Shown here one piece after another: positions 10,993 through 27,124 of a DNA stretch of 41,012 nucleotides. The DNA comes from Gammaproteobacteria bacterium (lineage in GTDB: Bacteria > Pseudomonadota > Gammaproteobacteria > S012-40). Location of the stretch: contig WFVN01000011.1 of the NCBI GenBank assembly GCA_015491615.1, forward strand, positions 1 to 41,012. The letters run 5' to 3'. How positions within the stretch are numbered: position 1 is the stretch's first letter; the number at the start of each line of letters is the position of its first letter. The translations under genes and the position numbers were made by a program. The notes beneath the pieces were generated by a model that saw only the letters and a list, made by a program, of their open reading frames with translations, was not told the DNA's origin and made no database searches.

Positions 10993-12510
10993 CTATTCCC
11001 CATCGGGCGGAGGGAGATCGGTGGCCGGTGCCTCCAATTCCTTGAGGATATCCTCAGGAAGAGCCTCTTCTTGTCGCGCCTTTTCGGCTTCCTTCGCCGC
11101 CTCTTCCAGCACCTCCATGACGCCGACGATCACTCCCGCCTCATTAACGAACAGGGTACGCATGGCCTCACCGAGGAGGGCGACGTCACGAGCGAGATCC
11201 TTGTTCTCGGGTTTCTGGGGGTCGAACACCAAATGGGTAGCGCGCGCCTTGCGCATCCACTCCAACAGTTGTGGAGGGGCATCGCTTCCCGGCGGTAACA
11301 TCAGCACGTCACACTTGCATACCAACATCGTCTGTCCAGGCCACTGGCTGAGCACGCGCGCGAACTTGCCCAGGTTTTCCACCTCCACGGCCACTTCTTG
11401 CAAGAGAATGGCATGAGGCGTTTGGATACCGGCGCGCACCATCTGTGCATAGGCGCGGTCTTTGCTAGTGAAGAGCACAGTGCACGCGATCAACAACAAC
11501 AAGACGCCTCCTCGGCGGGCAATCAAGCTTTGACCACCGAACTGATCCTGGAGCCGGATCAGAGCATCGAACGCCCAAATCATGATGAACACGAACACCA
11601 AATAAGCCCAGCCGGTGTCCGCTGCCGCCGCACCGAATACCAGCGACAAGGCCAACATGATGGCAAACAGGTCTTCCCGCAAACGATGGAAATTGAGTCC
11701 GGCGAGGAGCACGGCGACTGTAATGATGAGCCAGGGCTCCCAGGTGGGCGGAAAGGGATCCAATTCGGTACTGTGGAAGATAGCCGTCAAAGCAACGAGC
11801 GGATCGGCACCCCACTGAAGGGCGTGCCAACCGGCCTGTAACAAGCCAAGCAGACCGAGGGCGGTGAGCAAGCCGATGAGATTTTGTTTCTTGAGCCGCG
11901 CCGGCTTGGTTTCGTCGCGCCACACGCGCCATACTAGGGCCAGGGGATGAGCCAATCCCGCGGGATGGACGCTCACCGTCACCGCTGCCCACAGAAAACG
12001 CATATAGAACCATCCCCCCAACGGCCGTTTGCTGGCCTCGTATCGCCGTTCCATCCAGTGAGCTGCCAGGAAGCAAAAGAGAAGAAAAATTCCCGCTCCG
12101 AGAGAATCGATCTGGGTGAGCGTAAAGGGGGCCAAGAGCAGTAGGCCGGTGGCGATGAGAGCCTGTTCTTGCCCCAGCCGATCCTTCATCCAGCGGTAAA
12201 GCATGAACAGAGCGGTATACGCAATGAGGATCCACAACACACGGGGAGCGACGAGGCTGCCCGGCCAATACAAGGTCACTGGGATGAAAAACATCGCTCG
12301 TAGATCGGGAATTCCGAGCAGAACGATGGGGCTGGCCACTTGATGATAGATGGACCAGTTGAGCAGCAAACCTCGCGCGGCCCCCTCTTCGATGGGTAAT
12401 TCCCCGAAATGAATCAAGGGAATAGACAAAATCAAGCCGCCCCAGGCCAGAAGGATCCACAGCCAAGTCAAGCGCCCCAAGGTCTTTTTGATGTGTTCGA
12501 TATCGGGCAT
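10993..12510 (-). CDS. Polytopic membrane protein with an acidic soluble C-terminus; possibly GT-C-fold glycosyltransferase-like
   Basis: A 505-aa product with about 10-12 hydrophobic helices. The first loop is acidic (GELPIEEGAARG), reminiscent of the DE/EE loop of ArnT/PMT-type enzymes. The ~130-aa C-terminal soluble part ends in a Glu/Ala/Lys-rich tail. It lies 41 nt upstream of the bactofilin gene on the same strand. Confidence 0.6.
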   Translation of the reverse strand: MPDIEHIKKTLGRLTWLWILLAWGGLILSIPLIHFGELPIEEGAARGLLLNWSIYHQVASPIVLLGIPDLRAMFFIPVTLYWPGSLVAPRVLWILIAYTALFMLYRWMKDRLGQEQALIATGLLLLAPFTLTQIDSLGAGIFLLFCFLAAHWMERRYEASKRPLGGWFYMRFLWAAVTVSVHPAGLAHPLALVWRVWRDETKPARLKKQNLIGLLTALGLLGLLQAGWHALQWGADPLVALTAIFHSTELDPFPPTWEPWLIITVAVLLAGLNFHRLREDLFAIMLALSLVFGAAAADTGWAYLVFVFIMIWAFDALIRLQDQFGGQSLIARRGGVLLLLIACTVLFTSKDRAYAQMVRAGIQTPHAILLQEVAVEVENLGKFARVLSQWPGQTMLVCKCDVLMLPPGSDAPPQLLEWMRKARATHLVFDPQKPENKDLARDVALLGEAMRTLFVNEAGVIVGVMEVLEEAAKEAEKARQEEALPEDILKELEAPATDLPPPDGE

Positions 12511-12647
12511 TTCCTGGATTTGTTCTTGCCAAATGGGGTAGGCGATCTTAGCATCAAAACAGAGGCGTGCGAGGGACGAAATCGCCCGTCAAGACCGATC
12601 CTTTTAATAGGGAATGGAAATCAAGGGGTTGTGTTGGACGCCCTGGC

Positions 12648-12676
12648 TTGAAAGCGTTTTGGCCTCGTGCTATACA
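12648..12676 (+). promoter_or_regulatory. Candidate sigma70-type promoter (TTGAAA - 17 nt - TATACA) upstream of the micro-ORF and cytochrome c4 gene
   Basis: The -35 TTGAAA is at 12648-12653, followed by an exact 17-nt spacer and the -10 TATACA at 12671-12676. It lies in the 388-nt divergent intergenic region. This is sequence pattern only. Confidence 0.3.
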
Positions 12677-12727
12677 TGCCAAGGCTTCAGAATTGTCGAT
12701 ATTTTGTATGGAGGGGGATATCAAGCT

Positions 12728-12820
12728 ATGGTTACCACGGGTGACGTATTTTTGACGTATCTGCTCGTTTGCGTGTTGTTCTTTGGTCTGGCCATCGTGA
12801 TGTATAAAAAGAACGCCTGA
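12728..12820 (+). CDS. Candidate 30-aa single-TM micro-protein
   Basis: The Shine-Dalgarno GGAGGGGGA ends about 9 nt before the ATG at 12728. The product MVTTGDVFLTYLLVCVLFFGLAIVMYKKNA has one hydrophobic helix and a basic C-terminus. It lies downstream of the candidate promoter. Confidence 0.4.
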   Translation: MVTTGDVFLTYLLVCVLFFGLAIVMYKKNA

Positions 12821-12898
12821 CGGCGCGTTGGCCTCGGCGGCGAAGCGGTGATGTTCGGCCGCTTTGTCGGCTGACATACATAGGGAGGGTTTCAATCA

Positions 12899-13654
12899 AT
12901 GAGTGACAAAACGATTCAGGGGCTGCGCAAGATGGCGCTCGTGGCGGTCGCTTTGGCCGTGCCGATGGCGGCTAGCGCAGGGCCCGAGCCGGGTAAGGTC
13001 ATGAAGACCGCCAATATCGAGAATGGCAAGAACATCTACTTCAACGGCAAAGGCGATGTCCCTGCTTGTGCTTCCTGTCATGGGCAGGATGGTTTGGGTG
13101 ACGACGCTATGGGAACACCGCGTTTGGCCGGACAAGGTTTCACTTACGTCCGCAAGCAGTTGGAAGATTATGCCAGCGACAAGCGCATGGATACCACCAT
13201 GTTCGTCATGAACGCCAACGCCAAGGGATTGAGTGAGCAGGATCGTATCGACGTCGCCGCATATCTCTTCCAGTGGAAACAGCCTTACACCGGCTCGGAT
13301 CTGAAAGCGGTCGAAGAGTTGGGCCAGCCGATAGGTAAGCGTCACCTTGGCAAATCTCTCGTCATCTATGGTGCGCCGGAGAGGGGTATTACTTCTTGCT
13401 ATGCTTGTCACCAGTACAATGGGCGGGGTGCATACCCCATTTATCCTGAGCTGCTGGGGCAGAGGTACGTCTATCTGGTGAACCAGCTCAAGAAATGGCG
13501 TGATGAGAGCCGGACCAATGATCCGGGCGCGCAAATGCGGGAAGTGGCAAAGAATATGTCTGATGAGGATATCTATAACGTTGCTACCTATTTGTCTACG
13601 GCGCCGCCCAGCACTATCGGGAATTCTTACGTCCCGTATCATCCTATACCATAA
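12899..13654 (+). CDS. Periplasmic diheme cytochrome c (c4-like)
   Basis: SD AGGGAGGG lies upstream. A signal peptide is present (ALVAVALAVPMAASAG). There are two CxxCH motifs (CASCH, CYACH), each followed by a class-I cytochrome c half (RLAGQ...QL..Y, LLGQ...QLKKWR) as in c4/c553 diheme proteins. Confidence 0.85.
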   Translation: MSDKTIQGLRKMALVAVALAVPMAASAGPEPGKVMKTANIENGKNIYFNGKGDVPACASCHGQDGLGDDAMGTPRLAGQGFTYVRKQLEDYASDKRMDTTMFVMNANAKGLSEQDRIDVAAYLFQWKQPYTGSDLKAVEELGQPIGKRHLGKSLVIYGAPERGITSCYACHQYNGRGAYPIYPELLGQRYVYLVNQLKKWRDESRTNDPGAQMREVAKNMSDEDIYNVATYLSTAPPSTIGNSYVPYHPIP

Positions 13655-13670
13655 GGCGGACACACTAATA

Positions 13671-13698
13671 AAAACGGGGCCCATCCGGCCCCGTTTTT
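13671..13698 (+). terminator. Rho-independent terminator after the cytochrome c4 gene
   Basis: AAAACGGGGCC (13671-13681) pairs perfectly with GGCCCCGTTTT (13687-13697) around a 5-nt loop and runs into a T-tract. It lies 17 nt after the stop codon. Confidence 0.8.
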
Positions 13699-13801
13699 AT
13701 TTGTTAATTTGATAGAACTCGGGTGACAACGTTAGGTCTGAAGAATGAATGCAAATATTTCGTTATTTGTTTTGCCGTAGGAATCGGAGGATAATTAGCC
13801 G

Positions 13802-14359
13802 ATGGGGAAGAAGCAGCCCTTGAAGCAGGGCGAAAAAATTCTGTTCGGTATATTTGGGGTTTTTTTGGGGCTGGCGGTTCTCGCGTATGCCATTCTAGAG
13901 ATAGTGCGTCTCAAATCGGAAGAACCCATATTCCAGTCCAGGACAAGTTATGCGTTGTCGGAAGAGGGTAAGCTTGGATCCAAGTTATTTCGCGAGCGTC
14001 GTTGTACCGCATGCCATCGCGCCATGCGTAATGGAACGAACATGGGTCTGAATCTGGATGGAATCGGGAGTCGAAAAAATGTCGATTGGCTCTACGGTTT
14101 CTTGAGTGAGCCGGAAAAATATTACGGAGCTCCCACGCTCGATCATGGCTATCGCCCCAAAGAAGCGGCCTATGTTGCCGACCTGCCCGAGAGTGAGCGT
14201 CGTGCCATCGCCGTATTTTTGTCGGAATTGAAATCTGAAAGAGGATCCGCTTCCGCATGGGTACCACCTGAGGACGACTCCGGTTTTATCGATAAGATGA
14301 TTCGACTCTGGGCGCCGCCGGAATGGGCGGAAAAATATGAAGATGTGAGGGAAAAATGA
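13802..14359 (+). CDS. Membrane-anchored monoheme cytochrome c
   Basis: An N-terminal TM helix (ILFGIFGVFLGLAVLAYAIL) and a single CTACH. The LDGIGSRKNVDWLYGFLSEP segment resembles the CcoO-type heme domain and is paralogous to ORF 20533..21009. Confidence 0.8.
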   Translation: MGKKQPLKQGEKILFGIFGVFLGLAVLAYAILEIVRLKSEEPIFQSRTSYALSEEGKLGSKLFRERRCTACHRAMRNGTNMGLNLDGIGSRKNVDWLYGFLSEPEKYYGAPTLDHGYRPKEAAYVADLPESERRAIAVFLSELKSERGSASAWVPPEDDSGFIDKMIRLWAPPEWAEKYEDVREK

Positions 14360-14895
14360 ATAGCCAACCCGACAAGAAACCGTGGGAAGAGGAGGAATAC
14401 ACGGGCTACACCCTACGCTTTATCTATGCTTGTATTGTCTACGCCATCATTGGTTTTTCATGGGGCGCTTTGATGGGAGGGGTCTCAGAGTTCAGGCATT
14501 TCGTCGATCATCGTTTGCATGGTGATCTCATCGTTCGCGCCCACACCCACATCAATCTTCTAGGGTGGGTGGAGATGGCCATTTTTGGTGCTGTTTACTA
14601 CCTTATCCCGCGCCTGGTCAAGCGAGAAATCTACAGTATGGGACTGGTGAAGGTACATTTTTGGATGCACAACTTCGGCTTGATCGGTATGGTGGTACTG
14701 TTCACCGTGGCGGGTATCATCGGTGGGCGTGCGAGTTTGCACATGACACCCGATCAGATCGAGCCTTTGGTGAGGCCTTGGCTTGCGGGTGTGGGGCTGT
14801 TCGGGACGTTGGTCCTCATCGCCAATATCATTTGGGGCTACAATATCTTCAAGACCTGTAGGGGCTGGAGGTTGGCCTATGTTGCGGAGAAATAA
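14356..14895 (+). CDS. Four-TM paralogue of helices X-XII of the CcoN-like subunit (stand-alone heme-copper oxidase subunit I C-terminal fragment)
   Basis: The ATG overlaps the preceding stop (ATGA). My hand alignment to residues 334-407 of the 16637..18043 product gives 28/74 identities without gaps. These include LHG....AHTH..LLGW vs VHG....AHAH..LLGF, AVYY, KR.IYS and H.WM. The C-terminal IANIIWGYNIFKT vs IGNIVWLYNMYKT match adds 8/13. Confidence 0.8.
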   Translation: MNSQPDKKPWEEEEYTGYTLRFIYACIVYAIIGFSWGALMGGVSEFRHFVDHRLHGDLIVRAHTHINLLGWVEMAIFGAVYYLIPRLVKREIYSMGLVKVHFWMHNFGLIGMVVLFTVAGIIGGRASLHMTPDQIEPLVRPWLAGVGLFGTLVLIANIIWGYNIFKTCRGWRLAYVAEK

Positions 14896-15394
14896 ACTCG
14901 AGATTGCAGTGCTGTTCATGGTGTTCTTGGCGACTGTTGGTTGCCTATCCAAGGATGCCAGCGTCAAGGTCGGTGAGTCAGTGCCGAGCATCAAGACTAA
15001 GACCCTTGCGGACGTGGGAGGAGATTTCTCTCTCATCACGAGCTATCGTTATCCCGATGAGCGTATGTACCAGTTATCCCTTGATGAGGCGCTTCAAGCA
15101 GGTCGTCCCATCGTACTTGAATTTGCTACGCCAGGACATTGTACGGTTTGCGATAAGCAATTACAGATGCTCAAGGGCTTACTGGACAAGTATGAAGACG
15201 AGGTGATTTTCCTCCACATGGATCAGTATCAGAATCCCGAGGCATTTAAAGCTTTCAAGGTCATCGGTGACCCTTGGACGTTCGTCATCGATGAAAATGG
15301 AATCGTTCGATACAAACAGCCAGGTCGCGTGCTTTACAACGAGCTCGATTGGGTTCTCAGCAAAGTACTTGGTGGTGAGCAGGGTAACGTCTGA
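14879..15394 (+). CDS. Thioredoxin-fold lipoprotein with CxxC motif (TlpA/redoxin-like)
   Basis: The ATG at 14879 lies inside the last 17 nt of the preceding gene. The signal peptide ends in a lipobox-like FLATVGC. FATPGHCTVCDKQ is a Trx-like CxxC context, and the PWTFVIDENG cis-Pro region is typical of redoxins. Confidence 0.7.
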   Translation: MLRRNKLEIAVLFMVFLATVGCLSKDASVKVGESVPSIKTKTLADVGGDFSLITSYRYPDERMYQLSLDEALQAGRPIVLEFATPGHCTVCDKQLQMLKGLLDKYEDEVIFLHMDQYQNPEAFKAFKVIGDPWTFVIDENGIVRYKQPGRVLYNELDWVLSKVLGGEQGNV

Positions 15395-15846
15395 TGGCAA
15401 AGCGCAAAGAGTTCATCATTCGTCCAGACAAGCGGGGTGTTTGGTGGGATTTGCTCTTGTATGTGCCGACGGTGATCATTCTTATGCTGATAGGCTTGAA
15501 GCTATGGTACTCGGGTAAAGAAGGTTGGGGTTACCTCTTGGAATTTCTCGCGACGTTTTTTGCCTTCGTAGGGGGAAATCGCATCGCTACGCGTTTGCAA
15601 CTCACTGGTAAGTCACCGGTGAAGGTGACGGTGGACAAGCAAGCCGTTTTGGTCGACTTGAAAAAAGGAGAACAAGTCGCCTTGGTGAAGAATGTTAAAT
15701 TCTTCAGTGATTATGCAGGGCGGTCGTTTGCGGTAAGCGGCATCGATAGTAGGGGGGAGAAAAAAAGCTATGTCTTCCACAAAGGGCAATTCACATTGGA
15801 GGATGAATACAAGTCCGCCCTGTCCGCTCTACGGGTTTTTGCTTAG
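15394..15846 (+). CDS. Membrane protein with two N-terminal TM helices and a ~90-aa soluble domain (possibly bacterial PH-like)
   Basis: The ATG overlaps the preceding stop (TGATG). The hydrophobic helices are LLLYVPTVIILMLIGLKLW and YLLEFLATFFAFVGG. I recognised no catalytic motif. Confidence 0.6.
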   Translation: MAKRKEFIIRPDKRGVWWDLLLYVPTVIILMLIGLKLWYSGKEGWGYLLEFLATFFAFVGGNRIATRLQLTGKSPVKVTVDKQAVLVDLKKGEQVALVKNVKFFSDYAGRSFAVSGIDSRGEKKSYVFHKGQFTLEDEYKSALSALRVFA

Positions 15847-16034
15847 CCACGTTTTGCGCGGTAAATGTTCCGGGCAAGGATGGCGAGGACAAAGATACCT
15901 ATGATTTCCGCGATGAGAATGATAATCAGTTTTGCTTCGTCGGTGACGAAACCATCCACCATCATATGAATCGAGTAGCCCAGCAAGAACAAGAAGCCAA
16001 ATGCCGATATAAGGTAAAGAGCTATTTCTTTCAT
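15843..16034 (-). CDS. Small two-TM membrane protein (63 aa)
   Basis: This is the only minus-strand ORF inside the cluster. The hydrophobic product is MKEIALYLISAFGFLFLLGYSIHMM...LIIILIAEIIGIFVLAILA with an RNIYRAKRG tail. Its 3' end overlaps the convergent gene by 4 nt. Confidence 0.45.
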   Translation of the reverse strand: MKEIALYLISAFGFLFLLGYSIHMMVDGFVTDEAKLIIILIAEIIGIFVLAILARNIYRAKRG

Positions 16035-16204
16035 CGGGTTATACCTGTTTCTGATGTATCGGGTTTATGTAACTATAATTGATGAGGTGGGAAGGCCAAT
16101 AGTCCTTGACCCGGCATGATCGTCTATGCAACGATTTGTAGTCGCTAATGAAAGGCGAAATTCATAATTGTTTTAGTCGGTTATAAGCGCATAAGGGAGG
16201 GGTT

Positions 16205-16468
16205 ATGAATAAGCTTCTGATTTGTATCGTTGCCGGAATGACCACCGGAATGGGCAACGGGAGCGTCTTTGGGGCGACGTTGATGTGCTTTCTTGGGCGT
16301 GGCAAATTCGAGGATTGGGGTGGGGCGCCCAATGCTTTGAACTTCCACCCCGCGACTTTCACTGGGTTCGTGGACTGGGTGATGATCGTGTTTGGCGTGG
16401 CCTTTGTCATCATCATGGTGTTGGCCTTGGCGAAACACGAGCAGCTTGAGGCTGCAGCGTCGCGTTGA
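16205..16468 (+). CDS. Small membrane protein (87 aa), first gene of the oxidase operon
   Basis: A strong SD (AAGGGAGGGG) lies 4 nt before the ATG. The product has a hydrophobic N-terminus and a C-terminal TM helix (FVDWVMIVFGVAFVIIMVLALA). Confidence 0.6.
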   Translation: MNKLLICIVAGMTTGMGNGSVFGATLMCFLGRGKFEDWGGAPNALNFHPATFTGFVDWVMIVFGVAFVIIMVLALAKHEQLEAAASR

Positions 16469-16524
16469 GCGTTGCCCGTTGGATCGTATTGCTTCAGACT
16501 TTTCATTAAAAAAGGAGGGGGATC

Positions 16525-16617
16525 ATGGCGACATTCGCTAGTTTCTGCGGGATTCTGCTCGCGTTCGCGAGCATGTGGTTTGCTTGGTATCTGCTGATGC
16601 CGCGGGAACGCGGTTAA
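16525..16617 (+). CDS. Candidate 30-aa single-TM micro-protein immediately upstream of the CcoN-like gene (CcoQ-position peptide)
   Basis: It is absent from the ORF track because it is shorter than 60 aa. SD AAGGAGGGGGA ends 4 nt before the ATG at 16525. The product is MATFASFCGILLAFASMWFAWYLLMPRERG, with TAA at 16615-16617, 19 nt before the next start. Confidence 0.5.
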   Translation: MATFASFCGILLAFASMWFAWYLLMPRERG

Positions 16618-16636
16618 TTTAAGGGGAGGTCTGTCG

Positions 16637-18043
16637 ATGCTTAAATATCTCTTCATGAGGAACGAAGATATCCCGCCCGGCACTGCGGCAGTTTTCTTCG
16701 GCTTCTCCTCAATCGTCTGGTTTGTGCTTGGTACCGGGCTTGGATCTTTCAATGCGGCCAAGCTGGCCTTCCCGGACTTCGTCACGGGTATCGAGATGCT
16801 GTCTTTCGGGCACATGCGGCAGGTGCACGTGCTCGCCGTGATCCTGGGATGGATCTCCATGGCGTTCGCCATGACCATGATGTACATCACGCCTGCCCTG
16901 GGTAACACCAAGCTCTGGTCCGAGAAGTTGGGGGTTTGGAACTGTGCCCTCTGGAACATCGGCCTTGCATTGGGTCTCTTCCTCCTCTGGATCGGTATTT
17001 CCTCCGGGCGTGAATATTCCGACCTCATCTGGCCCGTCGATCTGGTCGTTATCTTTGGTGTTCTCTTTCCGCTCGGCTTGAATGTCTGGATGACGATCAA
17101 GAATCGTCGTACCCAAGGTATTTACACCACGAACTGGTTCTTTGGTGCGGCCGTTTTCATGGTCATCGTGGTATTCCTGGTGGGTAACACCCCCGAGTTC
17201 TTCAATCTAACTGGTCTGACGGAAGCCTATCTGACTTGGTGGTTCGCTCACAATGTGTTGGGTCTATGGATCACCCCGGTAGCCGCTGCCATTTCCTACT
17301 ATGTGGTGCCGAAAGTCACGGGTAATCCACTGTACTCACACCGTATCGGCCATTTGCATTTCTGGTCGGTCGTGGTGTTCTACTCCACGCCCGCTGCGCA
17401 CCATTTGATGGCTGCGCCTCTGCCGGAGTGGCTTAAATCCTTTGCCTCCGTGGAGGGTGTGTTGATTCTGGTGCCGGCCATTGCCTTTGTGTCCAACCTC
17501 CTGTTGACCATGACCGGTAAGTGGCGGATGTTCGTCGAGAACATCGAGATCAAATACACCATCACGGGTGTATTGCTCGCCATTCCTTTAAACGTGCAGG
17601 GTGGTTTCCAGCAGACCCGCGCCATCAATTGGTACGTGCATGGTACAGGCTGGATCGTCGCGCATGCGCACTTGGCATTGTTGGGCTTCTCTACCTTCCT
17701 CGAGGCTGCAGCAGTGTATTACGGTCTCCAAGTGCTGTTGAAGCGGAAGATCTACTCTCTGGCCTTGGCCAATTTCCACTACTGGATGTTGCTCATCGGC
17801 TTCTCCATCTACTGGATTTCCATGACCATCGCAGGTCTGATCCAGGGTGCGGGTAAGATTTACGAAGTGCCCTACATTGATGTGGTGATCGCTGAGCATC
17901 CCTACATGATCGCTCGTTGGGTCGGTGGGACGTTGGTGTTCATCGGCAACATCGTGTGGTTGTACAACATGTACAAGACGGCGGTCGCTGGTACGCCTAT
18001 CCCGGCGGGTCGCCTACCTCATGAGCTGGCCTACGAGCGTTGA
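16637..18043 (+). CDS. ccoN: C-family (cbb3-type) heme-copper oxidase subunit I, CcoN-like
   Basis: SD AGGGGAGG lies upstream. The product is 468 aa with 12 predicted TM helices. Ligand motifs are FGHMRQVH (H64), WWFAHN (H205), FYSTPAAHH (Y249, H255, H256) and VAHAHLALLGF (H343, H345). Confidence 0.9.
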   Translation: MLKYLFMRNEDIPPGTAAVFFGFSSIVWFVLGTGLGSFNAAKLAFPDFVTGIEMLSFGHMRQVHVLAVILGWISMAFAMTMMYITPALGNTKLWSEKLGVWNCALWNIGLALGLFLLWIGISSGREYSDLIWPVDLVVIFGVLFPLGLNVWMTIKNRRTQGIYTTNWFFGAAVFMVIVVFLVGNTPEFFNLTGLTEAYLTWWFAHNVLGLWITPVAAAISYYVVPKVTGNPLYSHRIGHLHFWSVVVFYSTPAAHHLMAAPLPEWLKSFASVEGVLILVPAIAFVSNLLLTMTGKWRMFVENIEIKYTITGVLLAIPLNVQGGFQQTRAINWYVHGTGWIVAHAHLALLGFSTFLEAAAVYYGLQVLLKRKIYSLALANFHYWMLLIGFSIYWISMTIAGLIQGAGKIYEVPYIDVVIAEHPYMIARWVGGTLVFIGNIVWLYNMYKTAVAGTPIPAGRLPHELAYER

Positions 18044-18069
18044 TAATAATTAGAAGGGAGGAATGAACA

Positions 18070-19020
18070 GTGGCATTCAGAGAATATAAAATCGGGGTGC
18101 GAATGTTCGCATTCGCCCTCGGCAGCTCCATGATCATCACTCTCTATTTCCCGAGTGTAGACATGGCATCCGTGCAGGCGACCGAATACGCCCTGAAACG
18201 GCAATTGGCCTATGGTCGCATCGGTGGGTTCAGCTATGAAGATCCCCTCTTAAAGGGCTGGGGCAAGCCGGTCACTGTCACTCTGGACAAGGATCCGGTG
18301 ACGGGCAAGCCCATTGAGCCGACGGAGGCATATGTTTATCCCCCTGGGACGCCATTCCCCAGCGGTATTACTCATCCCCGTATCCTGGGTGAGGGTGTGG
18401 AGGACTTGAGTGTTTCGGTGGGACGGATCAGCGAGGCCAACAAGGAGAATGGCGCCGTATTCATCATCCGCGAAGGTGAGTTCCAGGGGCAGACGGTTGC
18501 GTACATTGAGAACGCAACGGCCACTCGCGGTTGGCAGGCGCAAACCACTTTGGCCGCTGTCTCCGATGATGCGCGTCAATATGTCGGGTCGGGCAAGATC
18601 ATGTTTGTCCGCGAAGGTTGTTGGTGGTGCCATACCTTGTTGCCGGAACAAACGCAGGACTGGCAGTATTTCGGTGCGCCACCGATGTTAGGTGACTTCA
18701 ACGGCGAGTCGCCGACCGCCTTCGGCTCTGACCGTAAGGCGCCCGATCTGCTGCATGTGGCTTCCCGCAACTCCTCGCGGGAATGGATGAAGTTACATTT
18801 CTTCAATCCTCGACTCGTCCAGCCGCACTCCATCATGCCCCGCTACGATTATCTCTGGGGTGAGGTGGATGCCGAAGGAAATAAGATCGACTACGACCGG
18901 TGGCGCGCGGAGTACGATGAGTATGTGGAAGGGAAGCGGGTCTATCCGCCCGAAGTGCCCGAGCCGCATCCCGATAGTGAGGCTCGGAAGCTCATTGATT
19001 TCATGATGTTCTTGAAATAA
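18070..19020 (+). CDS. ccoO: CcoO-like membrane-anchored monoheme cytochrome c subunit with a ~115-aa insertion
   Basis: The GTG start lies 8-9 nt after SD GAAGGGAGGA. An N-terminal TM helix is followed by REGCWWCH (Cys184-His188 by my count). The remainder follows the CcoO pattern: GSDRKAPDL, SREWMKLHFFNPR and SIMPRYDYL (Met ligand context). Confidence 0.85.
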   Translation: MAFREYKIGVRMFAFALGSSMIITLYFPSVDMASVQATEYALKRQLAYGRIGGFSYEDPLLKGWGKPVTVTLDKDPVTGKPIEPTEAYVYPPGTPFPSGITHPRILGEGVEDLSVSVGRISEANKENGAVFIIREGEFQGQTVAYIENATATRGWQAQTTLAAVSDDARQYVGSGKIMFVREGCWWCHTLLPEQTQDWQYFGAPPMLGDFNGESPTAFGSDRKAPDLLHVASRNSSREWMKLHFFNPRLVQPHSIMPRYDYLWGEVDAEGNKIDYDRWRAEYDEYVEGKRVYPPEVPEPHPDSEARKLIDFMMFLK

Positions 19021-19035
19021 GGGGGGATACAGCAG

Positions 19036-19668
19036 ATGGCCTGGAAATTTGACAACCCGCTTTATACGCTCACGGACGAGCAAGAGAACGAAAGAGCGAA
19101 ACAGCTCTGGGATTCTGAACCGCTGGGCGGCATCACGGAAGACAACAATCGTCTCCCAGTGCCAGTGGTTGGCTTGCTGGCATTGACGATCATCACGGCT
19201 TTCATGATCACCTTCCCGCTTTGGGGACACCGTCCAACGGCTGCGATTTATGAGCCGTATCTTGAGCTCATGGACACGCCGGAGATTCAGGCGTTGCCTA
19301 ATGATGAGGAACGGATGAAGCGGATGGAGAATATCGTCTTCTCCGACAAGAAATATGCTGATCTCATCCCTCATCTTGAGCGGCATCCAGTGGAAATGGA
19401 CGACCTGCGGATGATCAAGCCCCAGGTGCTCGAGCTCAAGCGGCAGGGTGAGCCTTTGGATTGGTACTTCGTGGTTGGAAACAAAGTGGTACTCGCCAAC
19501 TTCGAGGGTAATCTCTTGCCGGATGGTCGACGCGAACGTAAGCAGCCGTGGTGGGACATTGGTTATACGATCGACGTGTTCTATATCCTGGCTTTCTGCT
19601 TGGGTGTCATGATTGCCGTGAAGCGTTTGCCTCCATACACTTGGCAACCGACCCACAACGGTCATTGA
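19036..19668 (+). CDS. Heme-less FixP_N-like (CcoP N-terminal anchor-like) membrane protein
   Basis: It occupies the ccoP position. GGITEDNNRLPVPVVGLLALTIITAFMITFPLWGHRP resembles the CcoP N-terminal domain (DGI.E.NNPLP.WW + TM). There is only one Cys, no CxxCH, and a second TM helix near the C-terminus. Confidence 0.65.
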   Translation: MAWKFDNPLYTLTDEQENERAKQLWDSEPLGGITEDNNRLPVPVVGLLALTIITAFMITFPLWGHRPTAAIYEPYLELMDTPEIQALPNDEERMKRMENIVFSDKKYADLIPHLERHPVEMDDLRMIKPQVLELKRQGEPLDWYFVVGNKVVLANFEGNLLPDGRRERKQPWWDIGYTIDVFYILAFCLGVMIAVKRLPPYTWQPTHNGH

Positions 19669-19685
19669 AAGAGGAGGAAAATCGA

Positions 19686-19820
19686 ATGATCGATATCGAC
19701 AATGGACCACTCGTCCTATTGGGGATTATCTTATTCGTTTACGTTGCGCCGTTCATTTACAGTTTCTTTGTGGATGAATACGACAAAACTAATCCACCGA
19801 CGGACGAATATTCCAAGTAA
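19686..19820 (+). CDS. Candidate 44-aa single-TM micro-protein, last gene of the oxidase operon
   Basis: SD AAGAGGAGGAAAA ends about 5 nt before the ATG at 19686. The product is MIDIDNGPLVLLGIILFVYVAPFIYSFFVDEYDKTNPPTDEYSK. A strong terminator follows. Confidence 0.5.
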   Translation: MIDIDNGPLVLLGIILFVYVAPFIYSFFVDEYDKTNPPTDEYSK

Positions 19821-19841
19821 TTATTTATTGAGGTAAATGGG

Positions 19842-19874
19842 GGCCGCCGCATGTTTTCCATGCGGCGGCCTTTT
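19842..19874 (+). terminator. Rho-independent terminator ending the CcoN/CcoO operon
   Basis: GGCCGCCGCATG (19842-19853) pairs perfectly with CATGCGGCGGCC (19859-19870) around a 5-nt loop, followed by TTTT. Confidence 0.85.
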
Positions 19875-19937
19875 ACTTGAGTACGCATTCAATGCACGAA
19901 TCGAGAACTAATTTTGCGATCAGAGGTCCCTTTCTTT

Positions 19938-20192
19938 ATGGATGATGGCAAAACCGGTATCGAACAGATTACGGGAATAGAGGGTCCATTCAGCCAACAA
20001 TTCAGCGAATGGATGTTTTATTTTCTGGTTTTCACCATTCTGATCTTTATTGGCATAGCAATATCATTTTTGATATTCAGCAGAAAGAAGCTCAAGCGAG
20101 GTGAAATCATCCTGTTTCTGTGGATTGGACTTGGGGTGATCGGTGCGGCTGTATTTGGTGCTATTCAAATGTTGCATGGTTATTTGTTCTAA
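19938..20192 (+). CDS. Small two-TM membrane protein (84 aa)
   Basis: The ATG at 19938 is in frame within track ORF 19914..20192, whose TTG start is less likely. The hydrophobic helices are WMFYFLVFTILIFIGIAISFLIF and IILFLWIGLGVIGAAVFGAIQML. Confidence 0.5.
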   Translation: MDDGKTGIEQITGIEGPFSQQFSEWMFYFLVFTILIFIGIAISFLIFSRKKLKRGEIILFLWIGLGVIGAAVFGAIQMLHGYLF

Positions 20193-20219
20193 TCCTCAAC
20201 GATAGCGAGGGCGAAGACG

Positions 20220-20504
20220 GTGAACGAGACGATTCAATCCCTACCAGATGGCTGGACGATTTATATTTGGTTGGTCACGGGTGTTTTGATCATTATCGGC
20301 GTAATTGTGGCGATTCGTTGGGCGGCGAAGAATGATCAGTTTGATGAGGACATTAAATACCTTGTGTTCGATGAAAATGATCGGGACAAGATGGACCCTG
20401 AAGAATTCAAGAAGGCCCAACTCGTCCTCAAGGAGCAAATCAAGAAGCGCGAAGAAAAACTACGGGAGGAAATGGCCCGGAAGATGAAAAAAGGGCATCG
20501 TTGA
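20220..20504 (+). CDS. ccoS: CcoS/FixS-like cbb3 oxidase maturation protein with an extended charged C-terminal tail
   Basis: A single TM helix is followed by IRWAAKNDQFDEDIKYLVFDENDRD. This matches the CcoS signature as I recall it (W..KSGQFDDLE......LFDDD). The start is GTG. The ~45-aa Lys/Glu-rich tail is absent from the ~50-60-aa canonical CcoS. Confidence 0.65.
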   Translation: MNETIQSLPDGWTIYIWLVTGVLIIIGVIVAIRWAAKNDQFDEDIKYLVFDENDRDKMDPEEFKKAQLVLKEQIKKREEKLREEMARKMKKGHR

Positions 20505-20532
20505 AGATCTTTTTTCGGACTGGACGAGTGGA

Positions 20533-21009
20533 ATGAGAAAAGGTGAGAAGGGCATTCTTATTGGGATCGCTTTGTTCGTCGCTCTGGGGGCGGGATGGAA
20601 GGCGTTGCAGTTAAGAGACATGGACGAGACTGATTATAGGATTCCATTTTACAGTGAAGCGGATCCAGAAACCGTTGAAAGAGCAGGTTATTTGATCAAG
20701 AAATATGATTGCAAGGATTGCCATACGCTTTGGGGTACAAGAAACGTGATGCAATCTGTACCTGCGCCCCCCTTGGATGGCATCGGGTCGCTCAAAACGG
20801 AAGAGTGGTTGTATCGCTATCTATCAGCGGAGAATCCCCAGACAATCTTGCCGTCGAGATTGAAACCCGAGTATCGAATGCCTTCTTTCAAAGATATGCC
20901 GGAAGAAGATCGCCGTGTGTTGGCCAAATATTTAGCAAGCCTCAAGGTGGAAGACTGGTATTTGGAAGAAGTCAAAAAGAAAGAGCGTGAAATGCTTTAT
21001 GGGGAATGA
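20533..21009 (+). CDS. Membrane-anchored monoheme cytochrome c (paralogue of 13802..14359)
   Basis: An N-terminal TM helix (ILIGIALFVALGAGW) and a single CKDCH. LDGIGSLKTEEWLYRYLSAEN matches LDGIGSRKNVDWLYGFLSEPE of the other gene at 12/21 positions by hand count. Confidence 0.8.
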   Translation: MRKGEKGILIGIALFVALGAGWKALQLRDMDETDYRIPFYSEADPETVERAGYLIKKYDCKDCHTLWGTRNVMQSVPAPPLDGIGSLKTEEWLYRYLSAENPQTILPSRLKPEYRMPSFKDMPEEDRRVLAKYLASLKVEDWYLEEVKKKEREMLYGE

Positions 21010-21027
21010 CCTATCCGTGGGGGTCGA

Positions 21028-21498
21028 TTGAAGATGCGGCGTCGAGGCTGGGATTATTGGTGGAGACGTTCGTTGACCGGGGTGGTCGCCCTGGGGCTTG
21101 GTTGTTTGGTGGTATTTCTTGGTAATAAGATCCTAGGACAGCGCTTGGAATTATTCTATGGCTTAGAGACCTTTAATCCTGTTTGGTTCCTACAGGTGTT
21201 CATCGTACCGGCGCTTGCTGGGATTGTAGTGTCTTTCATCTATGGTTTGGGTGGTAAATGGCATGCCTATTTTCCTCCTTTGATCGTAGGTATATTTCAA
21301 TATTATGAATCGGCCAATTGGTTGCCACTGCCTGAAGGGGCGCAATTGATGCCCATGGGATGGTGGGGATTCATCATGATTTTGGCCATGGAGTCGGGTG
21401 GGATCGGTGGTGTGCTGGGTGAGGTCTTGAACAAGAGGATTTACGGTAGAACCCCTAAACATTTGTTGTACAAGAGTGATTCAAACTCCAACCGTTGA
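21028..21498 (+). CDS. Four-TM membrane protein of unknown function
   Basis: The start is TTG at 21028 or ATG at 21034. Four hydrophobic segments are present. I recognised no motif. Confidence 0.55.
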   Translation: MKMRRRGWDYWWRRSLTGVVALGLGCLVVFLGNKILGQRLELFYGLETFNPVWFLQVFIVPALAGIVVSFIYGLGGKWHAYFPPLIVGIFQYYESANWLPLPEGAQLMPMGWWGFIMILAMESGGIGGVLGEVLNKRIYGRTPKHLLYKSDSNSNR

Positions 21499-21519
21499 CA
21501 GAACATTCTGTGCATTATT

Positions 21520-22593
21520 GTGGTATCCATGCGAAATCCCCACAGAAAGCTCTCACCCGAACAAAAGGCGCTGAGGAAGCGTTTTTTGTATGCCACGTTA
21601 GTGACATCCGTGGCACTTGCCATGATCGGCGGTAGTTGGCATGTCATTGAATTGGGTGCCATTCGCATGGAGGAGATGCGGGCGCGTGCCACCTATGATT
21701 TGTCGGAAATGGATAAGAAGTTACGCGCGGCGGGTGAAGATATCATTCGCCATGCGATGCATGAGAAAGGGCTGGTACGATTCGATTACGAACTGATAGA
21801 AATCGAGTCTTTACTCACCCATGAACAGTGGGCAGAGTTGGAGCGGATGATTTTGATTCCGGAGGGCGAGTTCATTGCTGGTACGGATCTGAAATCGGCC
21901 GATCCACAGGACAAACCGGCTCATTCTGTTTATTTGCCCGATTATATGATCGACAAATATCCTGTGACTGTGGCTCAGTATGCCCGTTTCGTGGCTGCGA
22001 CGGGTCATCGCCCTCCCTTGGATTGGGAAAATGGGCGTTTTCCTAAAAACAAGTTATTCCATCCGGTGACCATGGTGGGTTGGTTCGATGCCCGAGACTA
22101 CTGTGCCTGGGCGGGGAAGCGATTGCCGACGGAATACGAGTGGGAAAAAGCCGCGCGCGGGACGGATGGCAGGCGCTGGCCATGGGGCAATCATATGGAT
22201 CCTCAGCGTTTGAACACCTATTACAGCGTCGGTTCGACCACCGATGTGACGGCGTTTCCCGATGGAGTGAGTCCTTACGGTGTCTATGACATGGCAGGTA
22301 ACGTCTTTGAATGGACGGCCTCCGATTTCAAGCCTTATCCGGGCTCGGATGCTCCGAGAATCCTGTTTCAGGTGAAAGTGCCCGTGGTACGGTCAGCAAA
22401 GGACAAGGCGCAAGGAGTTGCTGACTTGGAATTTGTCGAAGGTGTCTATTACAAGGTTTTGCGAGGTGGATCATGGAAGAGTGATCCGTTTTCTACGTCC
22501 GCATATCATCGGAATTATGCGCTGGCGAGAAACGCTTCCGATTTTTTTGGTTTCAGGTGTGCGGCGGATGTCGAAGGGGGTGATAAAAAATGA
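21520..22593 (+). CDS. Membrane-anchored FGE-sulfatase (SUMF1/formylglycine-generating-enzyme-like) domain protein
   Basis: An N-terminal TM helix (LYATLVTSVALAMIGGSW) is followed by the FGE-fold pattern: IPEGEFIAGT, H.V.L..Y.IDKYPVT..QY..F, HPV..V.W.DA..YC.WAGKRLPTE.EWEKAARG, WPWGN, G.YDM.GNV.EW, LRGGSW and GFRCA. The start is GTG at 21520 or ATG at 21529. Confidence 0.8.
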   Translation: MVSMRNPHRKLSPEQKALRKRFLYATLVTSVALAMIGGSWHVIELGAIRMEEMRARATYDLSEMDKKLRAAGEDIIRHAMHEKGLVRFDYELIEIESLLTHEQWAELERMILIPEGEFIAGTDLKSADPQDKPAHSVYLPDYMIDKYPVTVAQYARFVAATGHRPPLDWENGRFPKNKLFHPVTMVGWFDARDYCAWAGKRLPTEYEWEKAARGTDGRRWPWGNHMDPQRLNTYYSVGSTTDVTAFPDGVSPYGVYDMAGNVFEWTASDFKPYPGSDAPRILFQVKVPVVRSAKDKAQGVADLEFVEGVYYKVLRGGSWKSDPFSTSAYHRNYALARNASDFFGFRCAADVEGGDKK

Positions 22594-22817
22594 ACGGTCG
22601 TTCGCTGGCCCTGTTGTGTTTGTTGTTGTCGTTCGTGTCGCCGGTCTATGCGGTGGATAGTTATCGCTATTTGCGAGTGACCATCGATACGCCGTGGATG
22701 ATTTTCTTGGGTTTGGCGACGGTCGTCATGTTACCTTTTATTCTCCTCATGATCTTGTATTGGTATTTCGCGGTGAAGAAAAAACCTGGTGAGGAGTCTA
22801 CCGGCGGTGAAGGTTGA
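22590..22817 (+). CDS. Small secreted/membrane protein (75 aa; signal peptide plus one TM helix)
   Basis: The ATG overlaps the preceding stop (ATGA). It has the signal peptide LALLCLLLSFVSPVYA and the TM helix IFLGLATVVMLPFILLMILYWYF. Confidence 0.5.
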   Translation: MNGRSLALLCLLLSFVSPVYAVDSYRYLRVTIDTPWMIFLGLATVVMLPFILLMILYWYFAVKKKPGEESTGGEG

Positions 22818-22818
22818 G

Positions 22819-23166
22819 ATGGGGCGCTGGTTGCTCGCTTGCGTGGTGTGCTGGGCGTTTGTCAGTAATTCGGTTTGGGCCGATGAGGTGGCGAGCGGCG
22901 AGGGGGGTGAATCGTTGCATGTCATCAAGCCCTTCGTGGAGCAGGAGATCGACCGTGAGATGTTCACGGAGGAAGAAAAACATCAGATCCTGTTCTACAT
23001 GGGTGTGATCTTGTTGTTGTTGTTGATCGCCACCGTCGCTTTCGGGATAGGAATGGTGTTGTTCGATAAACCTTGGTTCGTGGGCCACATGGTGTCCGCT
23101 GGTCTGACCGTGACTCTTGCCGTCGCCCATGCGGTCGCGGCGGTGGTGTGGTTCTTCCCCTTCTGA
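22819..23166 (+). CDS. Small membrane protein (115 aa; signal peptide plus two TM helices)
   Basis: The ATG lies 1 nt after the preceding stop. It has the signal peptide WLLACVVCWAFVSNSVWA and two TM helices containing His residues (FVGHMVSAGLTVTLAVAHAVAAVVWF). Confidence 0.5.
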   Translation: MGRWLLACVVCWAFVSNSVWADEVASGEGGESLHVIKPFVEQEIDREMFTEEEKHQILFYMGVILLLLLIATVAFGIGMVLFDKPWFVGHMVSAGLTVTLAVAHAVAAVVWFFPF

Positions 23167-25795: not shown

Positions 25796-27124
25796 ATGTC
25801 CAAGGTCCAATCGGTGTTCAGGATCCAGCCGGCGAAGGGCAACGCGCTGCGCACCCACCGCCTGCATCGGATGCGCCGTGCCACTCAATTAGGCACTTTG
25901 TTGCTCCTGGTGCTCATTCCTGTCAGCGGTCTCTTCCGCATCGACCCGGTGGACGGTGCCTTTGTCGTCCTCGACCGGCAGATCTGGTTCTCCGATTTTT
26001 TCATCGTCGTCGGTCTTTGGTTGGCGATGGCAAGCGGGTTGGTGATTACTTACTCCATGTTGGGGATGGTGTTCTGCGGCTGGGCCTGTCCGCAGAATAC
26101 CCTTTCCGAGTGGGCCAACGAAATGACCCATCGGTGGCTGGGGCGCCGGGCCGAGGTGACCCTGGACGGTGCCAAGATGGACGTGGCCCAGCGCAAGAAC
26201 ACCCCCCTCAATTGGGTCATCTTGGGGGCCTTGTACTGGGGGGTGTCGATGTTGCTCGCCCTTATCCCCCTATTCTATTTCTATCCCCCGGACGTGGTAT
26301 GGTCTTTCGTCACCTTCCGTGAGGACGAGCGTCTCGCCGGTTCGCTCCACTACATCTATTTCGTCTTCACTCTCATCATTTTCTTGAACATCGCTTTCAT
26401 TCGGCACTTCATGTGCCGGTTCATGTGCATCTACAAAATCTGGCAACACGGTTTCAAGACCAAGGACACTCTCCACATCGCCTATGACGCTTCGCGCAAG
26501 GCCGATTGCGAAAAGTGCAGCAAATTGTGCGAAGCGCAATGTTTCTTGGGGTTGGACCCCAAGAACACTGAGACCTACGATGCCTGTATCAACTGCGGTG
26601 AATGTATCGTCGCTTGCGATGCCGTCCATGCCAAGAAGGGAGAGCCTGGGCTGCTGCGTTTCGAGGTGGGCGAACGACAGTCGGCCCGCTTGGCCGCTTT
26701 TCGCACCAACCTGGGAAGTTTCGTCGGTCGGGTCCGCTGGACCATTCCCTTCACCGCGCTCGGCATCGGGATGTTCGTTTGGGGCCTCTACACCTACGAG
26801 CCAGAGCGCCTCACCGTCTATCAGGACGCGGAGGCAGGGCGTCAGGTGCACGACCGCTATCGGATCAACGTTGCCCACAAGCTGTACCGACCGGCGGAGG
26901 TGACGCTGGCCGTGGAGGGCCTGCCGGAGGGGAGTTATCGGCTCGAGCGTGACAGGATCTTTTTCCAGTCCACCGGTCGTGTCGATGTGCGTCTCTATCT
27001 CACGTCCCGGTTGGAGCCGGGCGTGCACACGTTTCTGGTCCGGGCGCGTTCCAGTGAAGGCTGGTCGGACGCGTTCCGGGTTCGTCATTTCGTCGCCGCT
27101 GGCGACGTGCAACAGGAGGGGTGA
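25796..27124 (+). CDS. ccoG: CcoG/FixG-like membrane iron-sulfur protein (cbb3 oxidase accessory, cupric-reductase family)
   Basis: Motifs FCGWACPQNT, MCRFMCIYKIWQ (variant of C..CPYARFQ), CEKCSKLCEAQC and CINCGECIVAC are present. A C-terminal TM helix and an Ig-like domain (FixG_C-like) follow. Confidence 0.8.
   Translation: MSKVQSVFRIQPAKGNALRTHRLHRMRRATQLGTLLLLVLIPVSGLFRIDPVDGAFVVLDRQIWFSDFFIVVGLWLAMASGLVITYSMLGMVFCGWACPQNTLSEWANEMTHRWLGRRAEVTLDGAKMDVAQRKNTPLNWVILGALYWGVSMLLALIPLFYFYPPDVVWSFVTFREDERLAGSLHYIYFVFTLIIFLNIAFIRHFMCRFMCIYKIWQHGFKTKDTLHIAYDASRKADCEKCSKLCEAQCFLGLDPKNTETYDACINCGECIVACDAVHAKKGEPGLLRFEVGERQSARLAAFRTNLGSFVGRVRWTIPFTALGIGMFVWGLYTYEPERLTVYQDAEAGRQVHDRYRINVAHKLYRPAEVTLAVEGLPEGSYRLERDRIFFQSTGRVDVRLYLTSRLEPGVHTFLVRARSSEGWSDAFRVRHFVAAGDVQQEG

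Follow-up and report, generated by a model that had tools for sequence, protein, structure and literature searches.

Here we analyse a contig of 41,012 nucleotides from a gammaproteobacterium (WFVN01000011.1, assembly GCA_015491615.1); the whole stretch is referred to as the window. Positions 14356..14895 of the plus strand encode a stand-alone four-helix unit of haem-copper oxidase subunit I, hereafter the unit. The assignment draws on the open reading frame (ORF), BLASTP, the Pfam COX1 profile, clusters of homologues and the ratio of non-synonymous to synonymous substitution (dN/dS). The gene is real and strongly constrained, and its product is an architectural variant within the haem-copper oxidase superfamily. 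Our preferred reading, which we put forward tentatively, is that the unit is a haem-b-binding protomer. It would form an oligomer, probably a trimer, and would serve an accessory redox module with its own cytochrome c, rather than an oxidase. Haem-copper oxidase subunit I is among the most studied membrane enzymes, and its internal threefold pseudo-symmetry is well known. In the literature we found no description of a free-living single repeat of subunit I.

The unit matches one third of CcoN and keeps the helix X histidines

The product of ORF 14356-14895 is 179 amino acids long. In BLASTP comparisons with the CcoN-like protein of the window (ORF 16637-18043), 46 of 130 positions were identical (35%, E 3e-19). 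The alignment pairs unit residues 41-168 with CcoN residues 322-449. The gapless stretch between unit residues 54-127 and CcoN residues 334-407 holds 28 identities in 74 positions, exactly as counted by hand in an earlier note on this DNA. When the unit segment was shuffled (n=500), the number of identities never exceeded 17. The 8 of 13 matches listed by the same note for the last helix can be seen in the BLASTP alignment. In profile searches, Pfam COX1 (PF00115) scored 59.5 bits (cut-off 34.8) over profile positions 310-410 of 436. NCBIfam ccoN (TIGR00780) scored 50.3 bits over positions 337-458 of 474, below the equivalog cut-off of 583.15, and the unit is not a full-length CcoN. Homology to the C-terminal third of CcoN, first proposed from the letters alone, is borne out by both kinds of search. 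The top matches among solved structures were the cbb3 CcoN chains 9g6b_A and 3mk7_A.

A hydropathy scan and the secondary structure predicted by AlphaFold2 (AF2) both place four transmembrane helices in the unit, as previously noted. The helices correspond to CcoN helices IX-XII, a small correction to the range of X-XII given before. The unit falls short of the twelve-helix core of subunit I. Its likeness to the CcoN of Pseudomonas stutzeri (3MK7_A) consists of the four-helix homology, the HxH and LLGW motifs, HFW at the start of the third helix and the ending YN..KT.

Residues H63 and H65 of the unit, within the sequence AHTH, align with H343 and H345 of the window CcoN and hence with H345 and H347 of P. 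stutzeri CcoN (3MK7_A). The latter pair are the ligands of haem b3 and haem b. The codons of H63-T64-H65 lie at positions 14542..14550 of the plus strand. Alignment with CcoN and invariance in the unit family both mark this HxH motif as the equivalent of the helix X ligands of the high-spin and low-spin haems. Subunit I has six histidine ligands (one in helix II, one in helix VI, two in helix VII and two in helix X), and only the helix X pair is present in the unit. Retention of this pair, and loss of the ligands in helices II, VI and VII, had both been read correctly from the sequence. Compared with CcoN, the unit is one third of the fold and lacks the helix II ligand, the CuB ligands, the cross-linked tyrosine and the binuclear centre. 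As far as sequence can tell, the absence of CuB ligands argues against reduction of O2 or nitric oxide (NO) by the unit.

The residues invariant in the unit family include R61-A-H63-T-H65, N67-LLGWVEMAIF, H101-FW, H105-N, C26, C168, E73 and E136. Five of these (C26, E73, H105, E136 and C168) are restricted to the ortholog group of the unit; neither CcoN nor the remaining unit families have them. Close to the cytoplasmic face there is a cluster of two cysteines and two histidines, and one glutamate is mid-membrane. The invariant Cys, His and Glu residues could form a second metal or proton site.

Such residues are the starting point for a different interpretation. The unit might be a non-haem membrane protein, the histidines of which, with the family Cys, Glu and Asp residues, bind or conduct protons or a metal such as copper. 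The fold would then have been re-used for transport, or for sensing of NO or O2, as proposed for NnrS. This would account for the group-specific invariant residues C26, C168, E73, R61, D51, H101 and H105, which are found on both faces and mid-membrane. It would also agree with the weak NnrS links and DUF1858 fusions of related units described below. However, those links are weak or indirect, and the window unit gives no Pfam match to NnrS. Moreover, only the haem-ligand histidines and the surrounding LLGW motif are common to all unit families. We consider a non-haem function improbable.

A few other profiles deserve mention. DUF2871 (PF11070), a four-helix membrane family, matches the first three helices of the unit weakly (20.8 bits, E 5e-4), below its gathering cut-off of 27.4. 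Some orthologues carry a precomputed PF11070 hit. In Pfam and NCBIfam the unit gives no profile match to CcoS, CcoH/FixH, CcoI, CcoG or SenC/Sco.

The gene is widespread and strongly constrained

More than 744 protein clusters, with lengths of 168-185 amino acids, share 69-87% identity with the unit. In a scan of one genome per species, the unit was present in 392 genomes. The carriers are Gammaproteobacteria (Candidatus Tenderia and metagenome-assembled genomes (MAGs) of Chromatiales and Thiotrichales) and Zetaproteobacteria (Mariprofundus erugo P3, Ghiorsea and many Mariprofundaceae). In M. erugo P3 the cluster is located on NZ_VBRY01000009. The earlier note had asked how often such fragments occur beside ccoN-like genes; the answer is in these numbers, and in the position of ccoN at the related loci, given below.

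Against the closest related locus, the dN/dS of the unit gene is 0.06. In a comparison of 80 loci, synonymous sites have reached saturation (proportion of synonymous differences, pS, 0.80) and the proportion of non-synonymous differences (pN) is 0.18. Median identity to the window is 82% for CcoN, 72% for the unit, 64% for CcoO, 56% for the cytochrome c encoded upstream of the unit and 47% for a membrane protein of 150 amino acids encoded downstream. Hence, the unit is the second most conserved protein of the cluster. Conservation extends over nearly all faces of the unit helices, a sequence pattern that suggests buried interfaces.

These data bear on the simplest dismissal of the gene, namely that a duplicated ccoN is decaying here, or that the ORF is spurious. 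The unit does cover one third of a known protein, and an orthologue has been annotated as 'truncated'. Conversely, a constant length in 392 species genomes, the low dN/dS and an amino acid identity that is still ~72% where synonymous sites are saturated already refute the idea. Conserved translational coupling and transcription of the orthologue, both described below, also contradict it. A remnant or spurious ORF is scarcely credible.

Related proteins contain one, two or three units

An exhaustive profile-free search with the unit returned other stand-alone proteins of 150-190 amino acids, with ~30-50% identity. The same search returned proteins of ~390-420 amino acids that match the unit query three times. 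HxH..LLGW recurs in the units of the three-unit proteins, and HxH is kept in all or nearly all of them. In the P0128 family (~411-419 amino acids) the invariant histidines are H40/H42, H185/H187 and H324; H322 comes close to invariance. Two-unit proteins of ~281 amino acids (the P0296 family) also occur, and some of their units are without the HxH motif. We assign P0128, P0271-P0294, P0137, P0139, P0142, P0149 and P0152 to the three-unit proteins, and P0296-P0303, P0161 and P0174 to the two-unit proteins. Relatives of ~700 amino acids are P0147, P0157 and P0168. CuB ligands are missing from the tandem-unit proteins, the only annotation of which is 'cbb3-type cytochrome c oxidase subunit I'.

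The relatives P0128/P0278, P0296 and P0308 are built from the same four-helix unit with HxH..LLGW, and the window unit scores at least as well with them as with true CcoN. They differ from the window unit in having units that are fused or alone, in a shorter loop from helix 1 to helix 2 and in the absence of the family Cys and Glu residues. The bit score of the unit was 141 with P0125, 96 with the Bathyarchaeia protein P0308 (full length) and 71 with the adjacent CcoN. In a rough neighbour-joining tree, built without bootstraps, the unit clusters with stand-alone and multi-unit proteins, outside the group formed by the third repeat of canonical CcoN. Since its scores are higher with stand-alone units, among them archaeal proteins whose loci show no oxidase, the unit is no recent fragment of the neighbouring CcoN.

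The neighbouring CcoN leads to the same view. This protein (468 amino acids, 16637..18043, plus strand) aligns end-to-end with 3MK7_A (E 2.7e-61) and contains all six histidine ligands and the cross-linked tyrosine. Thus, the unit does not replace a missing part of its neighbour. A role as a fragment that complements a defective CcoN was considered and is ruled out, the window CcoN being complete. The proposal that the unit arose by fission or duplication of the neighbouring gene is unsupported on three counts: the higher scores with other units, the position in the tree and the completeness of CcoN.

At the archaeal one-unit loci, and at the two-unit (P0296, P0299) and three-unit (P0278) loci, the flanks that we read contained no oxidase, cytochrome c or thioredoxin genes. 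Units that have no oxidase gene in these flanks suggest an autonomous activity.

We also searched complete oxidases with a hidden Markov model (HMM) of the unit. Three unit-like domains were found in every full-length oxidase tested; the third repeat gave the strongest match, followed by the first and then the second. Three domains per oxidase fit the approximate threefold axis that subunit I is known to have (PMC3604715).

Two further domain matches were seen among related units. DUF1858 (PF08984) is fused to the unit in P0304 and P0305, and one stand-alone unit (a member of alignment A6) has a weak match to NnrS (PF05940, E 6.5e-4). A link to NO-responsive proteins is possible.

A proposed trimer of units would re-create the subunit I fold

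Natural three-unit proteins are predicted to adopt the complete fold. The AF2 model of P0128 has 12 helices, with a predicted local distance difference test score (pLDDT) of 91.7 and a predicted template modelling score (pTM) of 0.90. It superimposes on full cbb3 CcoN chains with a template modelling score (TM-score) of 0.79 (E 5e-11). A head-to-tail linked trimer of the window unit gave a pLDDT of 87, a pTM of 0.87 and a TM-score of 0.74 against 3MK7_A; since its copies were covalently linked, and the alignment (A5) held natural three-unit proteins only, this result speaks for compatibility with the fold and is not independent evidence of trimerisation.

Helices II, VI and X of subunit I, each the second helix of its unit, each lie between two 'pores'. 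The helix II histidine and the second histidine of helix X hold the low-spin haem, and the first histidine of helix X holds the high-spin haem. Our proposal starts from this arrangement. The unit is one four-helix block of the subunit I fold, with HxH on its second helix, and subunit I is made up of three such blocks around the approximate threefold axis. By itself, the unit would oligomerise, and the simplest form would be a homotrimer in which the bundle of 12 helices is restored. Each interface could then hold a b-type haem, ligated by H63 of one protomer, in the role of the helix II histidine, and by H65 of its neighbour, in the low-spin role of helix X. In a weaker BLAST alignment, H63 of the unit falls on the helix II haem ligand of CcoN. 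A symmetric trimer with HxH in every protomer would carry three bis-His haems b. The helix VI and VII histidines being absent, there is no CuB, and the task of the complex would be electron transfer and not O2 reduction.

The small bis-His haem-b membrane cytochromes MsrQ/YedZ, NarI and cytochrome b561 are parallels to the proposed mode of action, in that paired histidines of transmembrane helices hold haem b and a periplasmic partner exchanges electrons with it. These proteins have no sequence or fold relationship to the unit. Furthermore, their haems are held within one chain, whereas those of the unit are proposed to lie between protomers.

A bolder version of the proposal can be drawn. Three units and three CcoO-like cytochromes c might build a threefold complex with three inter-subunit bis-His haems b. 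Such a complex would be a model, or a relic, of a stage before triplication; we think it somewhat unlikely. If it were true, the one-, two- and three-unit series would be a living model, or relic, of how subunit I originated in every respiratory O2 and NO reductase. The unit family brings within reach of experiment a possible origin of the oxidase fold, in which a haem-binding four-helix unit was triplicated.

The unit belongs to a translationally coupled four-gene module

The order of genes around the unit is constant: membrane cytochrome c, unit, thioredoxin-like CxxC lipoprotein, 150-amino-acid membrane protein. All four are on the plus strand of the window. The first gene (13802..14359; Pfam Cytochrom_C) encodes a membrane-anchored monohaem cytochrome c with one N-terminal helix and a CTACH motif. 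Its stop codon overlaps the start codon of the unit in the sequence ATGA at 14356-14359, and GAGG is found 8 nucleotides upstream. The third gene (14879..15394; Pfam AhpC-TSA, Thioredoxin and Redoxin) encodes a thioredoxin-fold lipoprotein with a CTVC motif. The ATG of this gene, at 14879, precedes the stop codon of the unit (14893-14895), giving a 17-nucleotide overlap, and GGAGG is located upstream. Both overlapping starts are thus preceded by a Shine-Dalgarno-like sequence, and translational coupling on the two sides of the unit, already claimed from the sequence, holds. The last gene of the module (15394..15846) encodes the 150-amino-acid membrane protein, which is without a Pfam or NCBIfam family. 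The same searches found nothing for an 87-amino-acid protein of the cluster.

The arrangement is conserved. A cytochrome c gene is directly 5' of the unit gene in 78/78 related loci, and the gene for the 150-amino-acid membrane protein is 3' in 72/72. At most of the 59 loci where the junction could be scored, the cytochrome c stop codon is no more than 17 nucleotides from the unit start; the commonest junction, found at 18 of them, is a 4-nucleotide overlap. The thioredoxin gene follows the unit in L001, in L004 and in the divergent relative L091.

The upstream cytochrome c shares the architecture of CcoO, with one helix and one haem c domain. Homology to CcoO was considered and is unsupported (E 0.36). 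Instead, the protein is a paralogue of the other small cytochrome c of the cluster, a second membrane cytochrome c encoded at 20533..21009 of the plus strand (BLASTP, 31% identity, E 2e-11). Both the haem c partner and the oxidase unit are duplicated inside one cluster.

We propose that the coupled membrane cytochrome c sits on the periplasmic face of the unit, as CcoO does on CcoN, and that it would exchange electrons with the unit haems. The unit, the cytochrome c, the thioredoxin-like lipoprotein and the 150-amino-acid protein may together form a separate redox module of lower abundance beside the alternative cbb3-type oxidase. This module could supply electrons, or provide redox support or maturation.

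A very probable orthologue in Candidatus Tenderia electrophaga is transcribed

The gene has been noticed before. Two papers on Candidatus Tenderia (Ca. Tenderia) electrophaga deal with ALP51724.1 (Tel_00415), annotated as 'truncated CcoN' and 'Complex IV (1)'. The RNA sequencing (RNA-seq) study of Eddie et al. (2017; PMC5371394) lists Tel_00415, of 525 nucleotides, and groups it with the cytochrome c Tel_00410 as 'Complex IV (1)'. A Tenderiales preprint (10.1101/2022.05.06.490989) draws the same cluster in its Fig. 2B and puts forward the idea of an 'alternative complex IV'.

Tel_00415 is very probably the orthologue of the unit. It agrees with the window gene in size and in neighbours (dihaem cytochrome c, monohaem cytochrome c, unit and thioredoxin, then CcoN and CcoO). 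The window unit has the features of the ALP51724.1 group, namely a length of ~170-185 amino acids, a partial COX1 match and HxH. The gene order of that group (monohaem cytochrome c, unit, thioredoxin, small membrane proteins, CcoN and CcoO) is found in the window and in loci L001 and L004-L086. In MAGs of Ca. Tenderia sp. (L029, L061 and L069), the unit genes are 70-73% identical to that of the window. The Ca. Tenderia cluster differs in having a second truncated CcoN. When the family HMM was run against all six-frame ORFs of the window, it matched only the unit and the three internal domains of CcoN, so the window has no second copy.

In the RNA-seq data, the value for Tel_00415 is 8.7 log counts per million (logCPM), compared with 13.7 for the full ccoN gene, Tel_00440 (PMC5371394). 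This corresponds to ~30-fold fewer reads, or ~12-fold fewer after length normalisation. The orthologue is thus transcribed, and belongs to a different expression class from the oxidase. The operon of Tel_00415 is also separate from that of ccoN. Lower expression, together with the thioredoxin partner, suggests an accessory role beside the oxidase.

What is already known, then, is that the gene exists and has been named 'truncated CcoN'. ALP51724.1 is described by its annotation and RNA-seq values, and we found no published analysis of its ligands, relatives or function. Beyond the two Ca. Tenderia papers, our literature search found no other mention and no functional study of the unit, which agrees with the earlier note that no function had been described. 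The ligand analysis, the family of bacterial and archaeal one-, two- and three-unit proteins and the predicted subunit I fold from three units appear to be new. The unit marks an uncharacterised four-gene redox module within the alternative cbb3 cluster that is found in iron-oxidising Zetaproteobacteria and in electroautotrophic Tenderiales. The oxidase genes of this cluster rank, in Ca. Tenderia, among the respiratory genes with the highest expression.

The unit and the neighbouring oxidase

In the window, ccoN starts 1.7 kb 3' of the unit. The ccoNO operon encodes the 87-amino-acid protein, CcoN, a CcoO-like subunit, small membrane proteins, the paralogous cytochrome c and FGE-sulfatase, spermine-synthase-like and FixG/CcoG-like proteins. 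Module and operon are split by a conserved gene on the opposite strand (15843-16034, minus strand), which is a hydrophobic ORF of 63 amino acids between two plus-strand operons. Its position is kept in gamma- and zetaproteobacterial relatives, and in Ca. Tenderia (Tel_00430) its transcription is low. Among 48 loci with enough sequence, 43 have ccoN 3' of the unit and on the same strand. Four zetaproteobacterial MAG loci have no ccoN within 6 kb downstream of the module, and at L057 ccoN is ~5.5 kb downstream. In the divergent relative L091, the unit is followed by the thioredoxin gene and a FixG-like gene, and FGE-like genes also adjoin unit genes.

Given these neighbours, the unit might be a maturation factor for the oxidase. 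It would hold haem b or b3, or copper, transiently and hand it to nascent CcoN, and the lipoprotein would keep thiols or copper reduced. The position of the unit gene 5' of a complete ccoNO in nearly all loci fits well, as does the coupled CxxC thioredoxin-fold lipoprotein, which is retained even in L091. FixG/CcoG-like and FGE-like genes are in the cluster; CcoG reduces cupric copper during cbb3 assembly, and copper is bound by proteins with the FGE fold. A transcript ~12- to 30-fold below that of ccoN is what would be expected of an assembly factor. In addition, a metal site could be made up of the invariant residues C26, C168, H101 and H105, which lie towards the cytoplasmic face. Other observations fit poorly. 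Some related units, archaeal as well as bacterial, have no oxidase gene in the flanks that we read, and the module is apart from ccoNO in some Zetaproteobacteria. A dedicated, translationally coupled cytochrome c would be unusual for a chaperone, and the unit has no Pfam or NCBIfam similarity to CcoS, CcoH or CcoI. We regard maturation as the main alternative to our preferred reading, but doubtful.

As another option, the unit could belong to the alternative cbb3-type oxidase as an extra subunit, perhaps in less than stoichiometric amounts. It would pack on CcoN and contribute an extra haem or a docking site for cytochrome c. In favour of this, a block of ~26 genes, most of them for membrane proteins, is conserved as a whole, and the cluster contains paralogues of the cytochrome c as well as of the oxidase unit. 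Conversely, the unit is in a separate operon, beyond an opposite-strand gene, and its transcript is much less abundant. The module can be unlinked from ccoNO, and solved cbb3 structures contain no chain that matches the unit, save subunit I. An extra subunit is therefore unlikely. The earlier note had offered both an extra subunit and an assembly scaffold; each keeps some probability, and neither is the best supported reading, given the low transcript level, the separate operon, the unlinked modules and the loci with no oxidase.

Several points weigh against our preferred reading, a haem-b-binding oligomer with its own cytochrome c, in addition to the restricted meaning of the linked-trimer model. 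We looked for a one-unit gene adjoining the two-unit genes and did not find one; hence, three units are not universal. No sequence similarity between CcoO and the upstream cytochrome c could be detected. A complete ccoNO and genes of the thioredoxin, FGE and FixG kinds accompany the unit almost constantly, which suits maturation as well as electron transfer. Finally, the invariant residues C26, C168, E73 and H105 are unexplained by a trimer.

Other genes of the cluster

Downstream of ccoN, positions 18070..19020 of the plus strand encode the CcoO-like monohaem subunit (Pfam FixO). This protein is 316 amino acids long, and the FixO match covers residues 174-264 only, leaving a long N-terminal extension of ~170 amino acids. 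A protein with an FGE-sulfatase domain (Pfam FGE-sulfatase, E 6.5e-55) is encoded at 21520..22593 of the plus strand. Positions 23073-25790 encode a membrane protein of 905 amino acids with a spermine-synthase-like methyltransferase domain. The cluster ends with a CcoG/FixG-like polyferredoxin (25796..27124, plus strand; Pfam Fer4_5 and Fer4_18). The FGE-sulfatase, spermine-synthase-like and FixG/CcoG-like genes are conserved parts of the cluster.

In MAGs of Mariprofundaceae, the four-gene module can stand alone. At L028 (7944-12426) it is followed by ppk (polyphosphate kinase) and pepA (leucyl aminopeptidase), with no ccoN within 6 kb. The module also stands alone at L046, L065 and L083.

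The alternative cbb3 cluster (window positions 12000-23000) is an island of low guanine-cytosine (GC) content, with ~47-53% GC compared with 65-72% in the flanks. The high identity at which Gamma- and Zetaproteobacteria share the cluster suggests that it spread horizontally. The closest relative, L001 (8000-18000), has the same contrast, with 53-57% GC against 68%.

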